A stretch of 64,000 bases of DNA from Enoplolaimus lenunculus. Lineage: Eukaryota. The stretch covers positions 310,001-374,000 of the forward strand of contig JASANG010000864.1 in assembly GCA_030248215.1 (NCBI GenBank), in the 5' to 3' direction. Position 1 is the first letter of the stretch. Every line of letters begins with the position of its first letter. Made by a program: the position numbers and the translations under genes. The notes under the pieces were generated by a model. It did not search any database. It had not been told where the DNA came from and saw only the letters and a program-made list of their open reading frames with translations. Below, in pieces: positions 41,085 to 42,564 of this stretch.

Positions 41085-42202
41085 CTGCAAACAACAACTT
41101 TGATCAATTTCGAAACGATAAATTCTTTCGGTTGTCATTCCAACCCCGCTTTCAATTCAAAAAGTATATACAGCATTTGAAAACAATTTAACATACAGCT
41201 ACAAAACTTTAGACATTAAGTCGCGCTTAGCACAAAAATATATTCCCTAGGCTAAGGTACGACAATTTTAATATATATGCTTGCAGCTGACAATGGAGGG
41301 TGTTCTAAGAGATTTGGATCCGATGGCCAACAACTTCTTGGTCAAACGTGCTAAACCACTGATTCACGATTCTCTACACTCAGCAGCCGAATTTTTATGT
41401 TTGTATGCCTAGCATAAAGCCTTTTCTCCATGTCTTACAACTTCTGCATTAAATAAATATAGACGTTGGACGGTGCATAATACCTACAGTTTATGGCACA
41501 AAACGACATATGCTATGGCATTTTAAAGTTCATTGGCAAAAGTGTGATTTCAACTAACCGAAAGGGTTGTCCATTCCTTTTGCCGAACGCTTCCTTAAGG
41601 ATACACTAATGTATTATATATACACGTAATCCTTACGAGCAATAATAATGTATTGTAAATACACTGAAAACGATATTATTACAAAATACGAATGCAGTTT
41701 AAGATGATTACTGTTTCGATTTTGTCAAGTTAGCTAGAAGATCTAAGTAAATCAATTTATCAAGGATTTTAATGTGTTCCGGATTTGGTATCAGTGAAGG
41801 CAAAACGAAGCCGAATTAGTAATTAGTTGCATCACGCGTACAAATAGACCAAATCCACTGCTACTTTGCCGAATGTGAAGCTTGCATTTCAGACAGTATG
41901 CAAACTTAATTCAATTAGAACACTGCTTTTCAATCTGCAAAACCAATAACATTTCTAATTCTAGCAAATACACTTCTTTCGCGAACAGCAATAATTTCAT
42001 GCTCGCCCTCAATTCTGAGACTTAACCAACCCAACGCATTCAAAAACGTAAGAATTTCGCATTGCTTAGTGATTCTTGTAAGCATGTGAGACATGCTTGT
42101 CCGTTATGTGCACATGCAATATAGTGCAGTGCACTGTATGTATGCTGGCTGACAGCATACGGTCGACAAATATAGTCGACGAAAATGGTAGTTGGACAGG
42201 CG

Positions 42203-42274
42203 GGCTACGTGGTGCAGTGGTAGAGTGCTCGCTTAAGGATCCATAGGCTGAGAGTTCGATCCCCGCTCTAGCCC
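42203..42274 (+). pseudogene. tRNA-derived sequence in 5' LTR (A box, B box, TTTT terminator)
   Basis: TGGTGCAGTGG and GTTCGATCC at canonical tRNA spacing; acceptor stem GGCTA/TAGCC kept, anticodon stem unpaired; TTTT at 42277-42280. Confidence 0.8.
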
Positions 42275-42564
42275 GCTTTTCCAGCTGCTTAGTTGAAAGG
42301 TCTAAAGTCCCGGTTCCAACCTAGACTGACATGGGGGCCACGCCGTGAGCGCAATGGTAAACTGCCGCGCTATGAACACGGTATGCAGTCGAAATTAGGA
42401 TGGACGGTCAAGGGACGACCTTGTTGAAAATAAGGGCATGTAAGCATGTGAGACATGCTTGTCCGTTATGTGCACATGCAATATAGTGCAGTGCACTGTA
42501 TGTATGCTGGCTGGCAGCATACGGTCGACAAATATAGTCGACGAAAATGGTAGTTGGACAGGCG

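Follow-up and report, generated by a model that had tools for sequence, protein, structure and literature searches.

The window, that is, the whole 64-kb stretch of DNA that was analysed, contains a tensin gene recognised by its SH2-PTB exons, a PHYHIP-like gene whose tail is long and of low complexity, and a p130Cas-like gene with SH3, serine-rich and CAS_C regions (all coordinates are collected in Table 1). The six tensin exons (16.2-21.7 kb) matched Trichuris and Trichinella best among 90 proteins, with top summed scores of 401-413 bits, whereas a stick insect protein reached 351 bits and a rodent one 337. A search with the C-terminal region of Cas found no relatives, and Pfam matched none of 53 reading frames in the interval 36.4-49.1 kb, which are part of the 148 in 31.8-49.4 kb. 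The window also contains a full-length U2 snRNA gene (Rfam, 140 bits), interstitial arrays based on the nematode telomere motif TTAGGC with units of 6, 35 and 105 nt, some of which are within tensin and Cas introns, and a MITE-like inverted-repeat family with arms of up to 81 nt. Together, the tensin matches and the TTAGGC arrays make a nematode host likely, perhaps one of clade I. A unit of about 172 nt that contains ATTTGCATA, and which Tandem Repeats Finder did not report, recurs in at least three diverged versions.

The U2 gene is 4 kb from a complete, gene-less LTR element of 617 bp, which is the subject of this analysis and is referred to here as the TRIM. It has a layout of 255 + 107 + 255 bp, with LTR ends TG...CA and a non-coding interior, and is present as a single copy in the window.

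Table 1. Coordinates of the TRIM, its parts and the surrounding features of the window
Feature	Position	Strand	Basis or remark
Tensin, SH2-PTB exons	16185-21693	+	
PHYHIP-like gene	29371-36479	-	
p130Cas-like gene	49418-58326	-	
U2 snRNA gene	46717-46908	+	Rfam
TTAGGC-based arrays	14219-14303, 18216-19467, 51837-51920, 58660-58905, 62809-62903		
Copies of unit of about 172 nt	38600-39100		
MITE-like inverted repeats	39313-39455, 44985-45013, 45193-45459		
Other strong-folding tiles	2405-2518, 24521-24634, 37061-37174, 39797-39910		z-scores
TRIM, complete	42077-42693	+	
362-nt unit (5' LTR + interior)	42077-42438	+	
Left TSD, ATTCT	42072-42076		same 5 bases directly 3' of 3' LTR
5' LTR, 255 bp, TG...CA	42077-42331	+	comparison with 3' LTR
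U3 block, four hairpins	42080-42180	+	z-scores; pairing probabilities 0.91-1.00
U3 hairpins	42080-42098, 42108-42134, 42140-42160, 42162-42180	+	named stems pure Watson-Crick
AATATAGT at loops of second and fourth U3 hairpins	42118-42125, 42169-42176		
Flanking helix, 5' arm (inferred U3 end + first 5 nt of tRNA-like acceptor strand)	42187-42207	+	
Decayed tRNA head, likely tRNA-Pro-derived, cloverleaf broken	42203-42274	+	Rfam, boxes, arms
A box	42210-42220	+	inside 5' LTR tRNA head
B box	42254-42262	+	inside 5' LTR tRNA head
Flanking helix, 3' arm	42269-42289	+	contains T4 42277-42280
Primer-binding site (PBS), tRNA-Pro type	42332-42345	+	abuts 5' LTR; 11/14 identical to Cer1 site
Non-coding interior, 107 bp	42332-42438	+	one local hairpin, 42343-42381
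Candidate polypurine tract (PPT), weak	42426-42436	+	10/11 purines; 2 nt 5' of 3' LTR
3' LTR	42439-42693	+	U3 arm 42549-42569, tRNA head 42565-42636, T4 42639-42642
Right TSD, ATTCT	42694-42698		repeats left TSD

The two LTRs are identical at 252 of 255 positions (98.8%). They differ by three transitions, at LTR positions 76, 137 and 169, all of which are compatible with the predicted fold and none of which is compensatory, although with two LTR copies this is weak evidence. The element is bounded by a TSD of 5 bp, within the 4-6 bp expected of a TRIM. Of the 14 positions of its PBS, the first 8 and the last 3 agree with the Cer1 site given in PMC3315495. The candidate PPT is A-rich and followed by CA; published animal Helenus elements have stronger, G-rich tracts. 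The T4 is the only run of four T in the 362-nt unit, and is located 3 nt beyond the tRNA-like segment. There are 10 matches to AATATAGT in the window, four of them inside the TRIM; the one at 42169, approximately 30 nt before the tRNA head, is at a position where a Pol III TATA-like element could sit. Exact and patterned scans of metagenome contigs, viral contigs and prokaryote genomes gave no further copies of the TRIM.

The initial annotation described the 362-nt unit as an almost continuous chain of hairpins whose RNA is under selection for structure. The arms of all 10 stems that it named are present in the sequence, and the unit does fold better than its shuffled counterparts, at -144.6 kcal/mol as against -115.6 +/- 5.6 (z -5.17; 0 of 100 shuffles as good; the reverse strand has z -4.68). 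Six of the named stems are predicted with probabilities of 0.91-1.00 in the linear unit. The other four, namely TGTCC/GGACA, TTTCCAGCT/AGTTGAAA (for which the inner 5 pairs were tested), GTCTA/TAGAC and GGTC/GACC, each have a probability of 0.00, in the first two cases because they are displaced by an unlisted helix in which 42187-42196 pairs with 42280-42289. The share of paired bases (65.7%) is at the level of the shuffles (63.2 +/- 2.7%, with 28 of 150 as high), as is the number of hairpin loops, which is 6 in the unit and is reached by 121 of 150 shuffles.

The folding signal is local. The first 114 nt, which contain the U3 hairpins, give RNA z-scores of -4.37 on the plus strand and -5.42 on the minus strand, and -6.15 and -6.97 when folded as DNA. 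The tRNA domain with its flanks gives -3.25 on the plus strand, -0.98 on the minus strand and -1.15 as DNA, while the tRNA core alone gives +0.51. The interior has a z-score of -0.29, its best 45-nt hairpin being equalled by 40 of 200 shuffles, and the last 35 nt of the LTR have -1.09. Because the signal is confined in this way and the interior is ordinary, the unit is, as modelled, composed of two structured modules and an ordinary interior, and is not a continuous chain. Selection for structure is plausible for the flanking helix and the U3 hairpins, and is unsupported for the unit as a whole, given that the interior folds at chance level.

The first module is the U3 block. Its hairpins are significant, yet they cannot be assigned to a role in RNA as opposed to DNA, because they are equally good on both strands and as DNA. 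When the interior is present upstream, two of the hairpins fall to a probability of about 0.5. Across 42432-42470 the first two hairpins compete with pairing across the PPT/LTR junction (each about 0.5), and it is possible that this predicted alternative acts as a switch at the plus-strand priming site. The third hairpin is closed by a G-C pair, its 5-nt loop ends in CTGA, and by eye it resembles the conserved hairpin that precedes the head in fish Helenus elements, a likeness that may be due to chance. Palindromic hexamers were considered as a dimerisation signal and rejected: there are 7 in the LTR and 4.0 +/- 1.9 in shuffled sequences, 11% of which reach 7, which is not significant.

The second module is built around the tRNA-like head. 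Over the full Rfam tRNA model, the head scores 17.7 bits in the 5' LTR (E 0.91) and 20.2 bits in the 3' LTR (E 0.19), both of which are below the cut-off of 29 bits, and ARAGORN called no tRNA in the LTR heads. The cloverleaf has 6 of 7 acceptor pairs, 3 of 5 T-stem pairs and 2 of 5 anticodon-stem pairs, and the predicted probability of the T stem is 0.00 in both LTRs, compared to 0.10-0.99 in 11 real tRNA-Pro controls. A functional tRNA in the LTR was ruled out by the missing ARAGORN call, the broken arms and the T-stem probability. The T-loop and D-loop sequences are retained and coincide with the B and A boxes, which depart from the Kojima consensus by one or two bases each (AGTTC for GGTTC; TGGTG/TGGCG for TRGCY). 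The boxes and their spacing have been retained while the cloverleaf decayed.

The head is likely to be derived from tRNA-Pro. A motif made from it fetched 24 loci, of which 20 are tRNA-Pro genes, one is called Ser and three have no call at the match; the motif positions had been picked after a likeness to tRNA-Pro had been noticed, and the control pattern fetched 1 locus only. Against real tRNA-Pro genes the head has up to 48 of 72 ungapped identities, and gapped alignments give 48 of 72 as against 45 for the best other isotype call. It is because this margin over other isotypes is small that a proline origin is described as likely rather than shown. The fetched loci are on contigs labelled as giant-virus MAGs, most of which hold tRNA-Pro(TGG), in several cases within tRNA clusters; L009, which is called Ser, resembles a Pro gene with an insertion. 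A likeness in the anticodon region to wasp Helenus elements (GGATCC) was dropped, since by eye it held in few families only.

The head is enclosed by a flanking helix of 21 positions, of which 20 pair (four of them as G-U) and one is a mismatch, and the duplex has an energy of -33.5 kcal/mol. The tRNA acceptor stem accounts for only five of the pairs. When the flanks were shuffled with the tRNA core held fixed, 0 of 1000 shuffles were as stable, and the outer 10 pairs were equalled by 3 of 9028 background 10-mers. The T4, a candidate Pol III terminator, sits within the helix. As neither the DNA fold nor the minus strand of this domain reaches significance, the modelled helix points to plus-strand RNA. 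In a single unit it is predicted as a local flanked hairpin with a probability of 0.98-1.00. With both LTRs present, the folding model prefers pairing across LTRs: the U5:U3 pairing has a probability of 0.98 in all 18 of the start/end pairs tried, and of 0.84-1.00 per pair with all R sequence omitted. The value of 0.98 is not independent proof, because any tandemly repeated hairpin can refold over long range in an equilibrium model.

It could be argued that the hairpins are features of the DNA or relics, for example short inverted duplications made by replication or paired protein-binding sites, which persist in a young element without selection on its RNA. The U3 block fits such an origin. 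Its stems are purely Watson-Crick and strand-symmetric, and it supplies most of the energy gain (20 kcal/mol is lost when the first part of the unit is shuffled, and 7.5 and 6.5 kcal/mol when the others are). It is also strong rather than unique: when the window is cut into 561 equal tiles it comes 4th, behind three unrelated 114-nt tiles, and of the 7 tiles that reach z -4 two belong to the TRIM. What this origin leaves unexplained is the flanking helix, with its four G-U pairs and its lack of significance as DNA or on the minus strand. Hairpins in the same place also recur in published Helenus elements. Of 14 ostariophysan fish LTRs, 13 have one immediately upstream of the head, and it shows a compensatory swap, with a T-A pair in zebrafish LTR-11_DR and A-T in carp Helenus-1_CCa (both compared by eye). 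We therefore regard an origin of all the hairpins as DNA features or relics as improbable. Separately, the other strong-folding tiles listed in Table 1 (z -4.3 to -6.5) are mostly long perfect hairpins, typical of DNA-transposon remnants.

The life cycle that we propose combines a linear Pol III RNA, an end clasp and a Cer1-like Gypsy helper, and we incline towards this full mechanism with modest confidence. Pol III transcription from the head is likely. In the 5' LTR it would start a few bases upstream of the head, which would serve as a promoter and not as a processing site. The first T4, with its GC-rich flanks, should stop most transcripts, giving products of about 85 nt. Read-through is assumed for the remainder, which would end at the second T4 to give a linear RNA of about 445 nt. 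Such an RNA would have the arrangement R-U5-PBS-interior-PPT-U3-R, where R would be approximately the tRNA head, at about 85 nt. In it the outer 10 pairs of the flanking helix could form only between U5 and U3, because the upstream arm would be untranscribed in the first LTR and the downstream arm would be cut off in the second. The resulting clasp would keep the donor and acceptor R adjacent for the first strand transfer; the argument for it rests on the assumed geometry of transcript start and stop. The U3 hairpins would likely be packaging or protein-binding signals. Host tRNA-Pro would act as primer, and the reverse transcriptase and integrase of a helper, likely a Cer1-like Gypsy element, would complete the cycle. 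No helper element was seen in this analysis.

Transcription could instead be by Pol II from U3. R would then be the whole flanked hairpin, folding locally at each of the RNA's two ends like the TAR and polyA hairpins of retroviruses, and the tRNA head would be a relic or an accessory. This would sidestep the problem posed by the first T4, and it agrees with the high probability of the local hairpin in a single unit; a TATA-like role is conceivable for the AT-rich loops at 42118 and 42169. However, neither AATAAA nor TATA[AT]A[AT] is present on either strand of the TRIM, and the folding model with both LTRs favours pairing across them. Furthermore, the survival of the A and B boxes and their spacing despite the decay around them is the pattern that Kojima interprets as retention of a Pol III promoter (PMC10886601). 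We consider Pol II transcription unlikely, and retain the Pol III RNA with clasped ends as our preferred explanation.

The initial annotation suggested that RNase P/Z cutting at the same tRNA-like site in both LTRs could set free an RNA of exact unit length, possibly circular, with no ribozyme involved. In the fuller form considered here, host enzymes would seal the 362-nt unit into a circular template, in a retrozyme-like cycle. The predictions for the circular unit do not single it out: it folds well (z -5.14), no more exceptionally than the linear unit, and is 5 kcal/mol worse. The LTR-interior-LTR arrangement already contains every junction of the circle. The likeness to retrozymes fails at its defining feature, the ribozyme. 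The hammerhead core motif, CUGANGA or CUGNNGA, is found on neither strand of the TRIM, and none of the 7 Rfam matches with E up to 10 is a ribozyme. The animal ligase RtcB is not known to join the 5'-phosphate/3'-OH ends that RNase P and RNase Z leave, which would make these unsuited to it, unlike hammerhead ends.

The processing step was compared with known substrates. RNase P measures the stack of T arm and acceptor (PMC4919913). The tRNA-like structure of MALAT1, mascRNA, shares a tRNA-like fold and leader-trailer pairing with the TRIM head, and shows that structures of this type can be real RNase P substrates (PMC8457004). The surviving acceptor pairs and loop sequences of the head are consistent with such a role. 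However, extension of the acceptor stem favours MALAT1 processing only where a base is bulged out at the cleavage position, and an uninterrupted stem lowers it strongly (PMC8457004). In the TRIM, 42202 pairs with 42274 and the helix continues with no bulge at the cut site, the T stem is broken, and the loop sequences also serve as the A and B boxes. The head as modelled thus has neither the intact stacked T stem nor the cut-site bulge of a mascRNA-type substrate. Retrozymes do show that a circle lacking R can be an intermediate (PMC4918200). Nevertheless, release and circularisation of the unit are very unlikely here. A circular, ribozyme-less intermediate would, if true, matter far more than the scheme that we propose, and it finds no support in this element. 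A U3:U5 clasp used by Helenus elements of several animal groups would be a likelier novelty, and is still undescribed.

Lastly, it is scarcely credible that the short Pol III product, made up of the head and T4, undergoes trimming, receives CCA and then primes the element's own reverse transcription. This product should be abundant, the head and the PBS both look proline-derived, and the 3' end of the head matches the PBS at 7 of 11 positions after TGG (4 contiguous). There are, however, three true mismatches and one wobble. Real tRNA-Pro genes unrelated to the head agree with the PBS just as closely (up to 8 of 11), the PBS shares 11 of 14 positions with the host-tRNA site of Cer1 (PMC3315495), trimming needs the T arm that is broken here, and Kojima found no such complementarity in Helenus (PMC10886601).

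Among known elements, the TRIM is very probably of Helenus type (TRIMp3). Helenus was defined, and the Pol III model proposed, by Kojima (2024; PMC10886601), where the lengths range from 311 to 1263 bp and the design is thought to have arisen several times. The TRIM resembles these elements in being below 1 kb, its 617 bp falling inside that range, and in having a tRNA segment with A and B boxes in each LTR, a broken cloverleaf, a PBS, a candidate PPT and a TSD. It also has a T run after the head, as in wasp Helenus families. By eye, a run of T4 or longer comes after the B box in each of the 19 complete wasp LTRs in one part of the supplement and in 0 of 14 ostariophysan fish LTRs, so that the T run is not universal in Helenus.

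The TRIM differs from published Helenus in its Cer1-type PBS without a spacer, its weak PPT and its four stacked U3 hairpins, and from the animal families in its TSD. Table S1 of the same paper lists no nematode and gives the animal families a 4-bp TSD, apart from two entered as undetermined, while the TRIM has 5 bp. On sequence features it is therefore assigned to the Helenus design and not to Kojima's animal lineages. Of five short TRIM motifs compared with the available Helenus consensus file, four had no match and one matched a wasp B box. No paper on a nematode Helenus or TRIMp3 was found in the literature accessible outside Repbase and most subscription journals. The TRIM extends the design to a likely nematode host, a phylum absent from the published table, and its 5-bp TSD and Cer1-type PBS point to a helper other than that of the known animal families. 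Cer1 itself, a Gypsy/Ty3 element of C. elegans, has a tRNA-Pro PBS that likewise abuts the LTR (PMC3315495). It is an 8.8-kb coding element, and is likened to the TRIM by the PBS alone, as a candidate type of helper.

No U3:U5 helix is described in the available part of PMC10886601. Three bivalve families, Helenus-2C_CGi, Helenus-1_ArIr and Helenus-4_PiIm, have helices of 13-18 pairs running from the LTR start to the end of the head and followed by a T-rich run; these are picked examples, compared by eye. Tentatively, and with some doubt, we suggest that Helenus elements in several animal groups may clasp the ends of their RNA by means of a U3:U5 helix in which the Pol III terminator is buried. 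This bears on the question of how helpers with dissimilar LTRs recognise and copy such elements; an RNA of about 445 nt carrying four U3 hairpins and a helix that clasps its ends would offer a small test bed for it.

The plant LTR retrozymes (Cervera 2016, PMC4918200) have a hammerhead in each LTR, a circular RNA with about 70% of bases paired, a 4-bp TSD, and RNA ends of 5'-OH and 2',3'-cyclic phosphate. The TRIM is similar in being non-coding, with an LTR-interior-LTR layout, a PBS, a candidate PPT and a structured unit RNA. It differs in having no hammerhead core, 66% paired bases (the level of shuffles), a 5-bp TSD and a tRNA head.

The model for Cassandra is an LTR:LTR super-hairpin in which the interior forms the loop, with read-through transcripts (Kalendar 2020, PMC7215508; also summarised in PMC10886601). 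It shares with the TRIM, as proposed here, a Pol III promoter within the LTRs, an RNA that runs from promoter segment to promoter segment, and a modelled LTR:LTR fold. Cassandra is of 5S origin, is found in plants and uses a tRNA-Met primer, while the TRIM has a head of tRNA origin and a tRNA-Pro primer site; a 5S rRNA segment, which is the criterion for Cassandra and Ajax, gave no match in Rfam at E up to 10. The terminal duplication reported for Cassandra is 18 bp, whereas that inferred for the TRIM is about 85 nt. Given the Cassandra precedent, structured RNA in this class of elements is not new. Finally, reverse transcription of Ty1 requires a 5'-3' interaction (CYC5/CYC3; PMC3681743). The Ty1 pairing adjoins the PBS of a coding RNA, unlike that suggested for the TRIM, and provides a working analogy for the proposed clasp.
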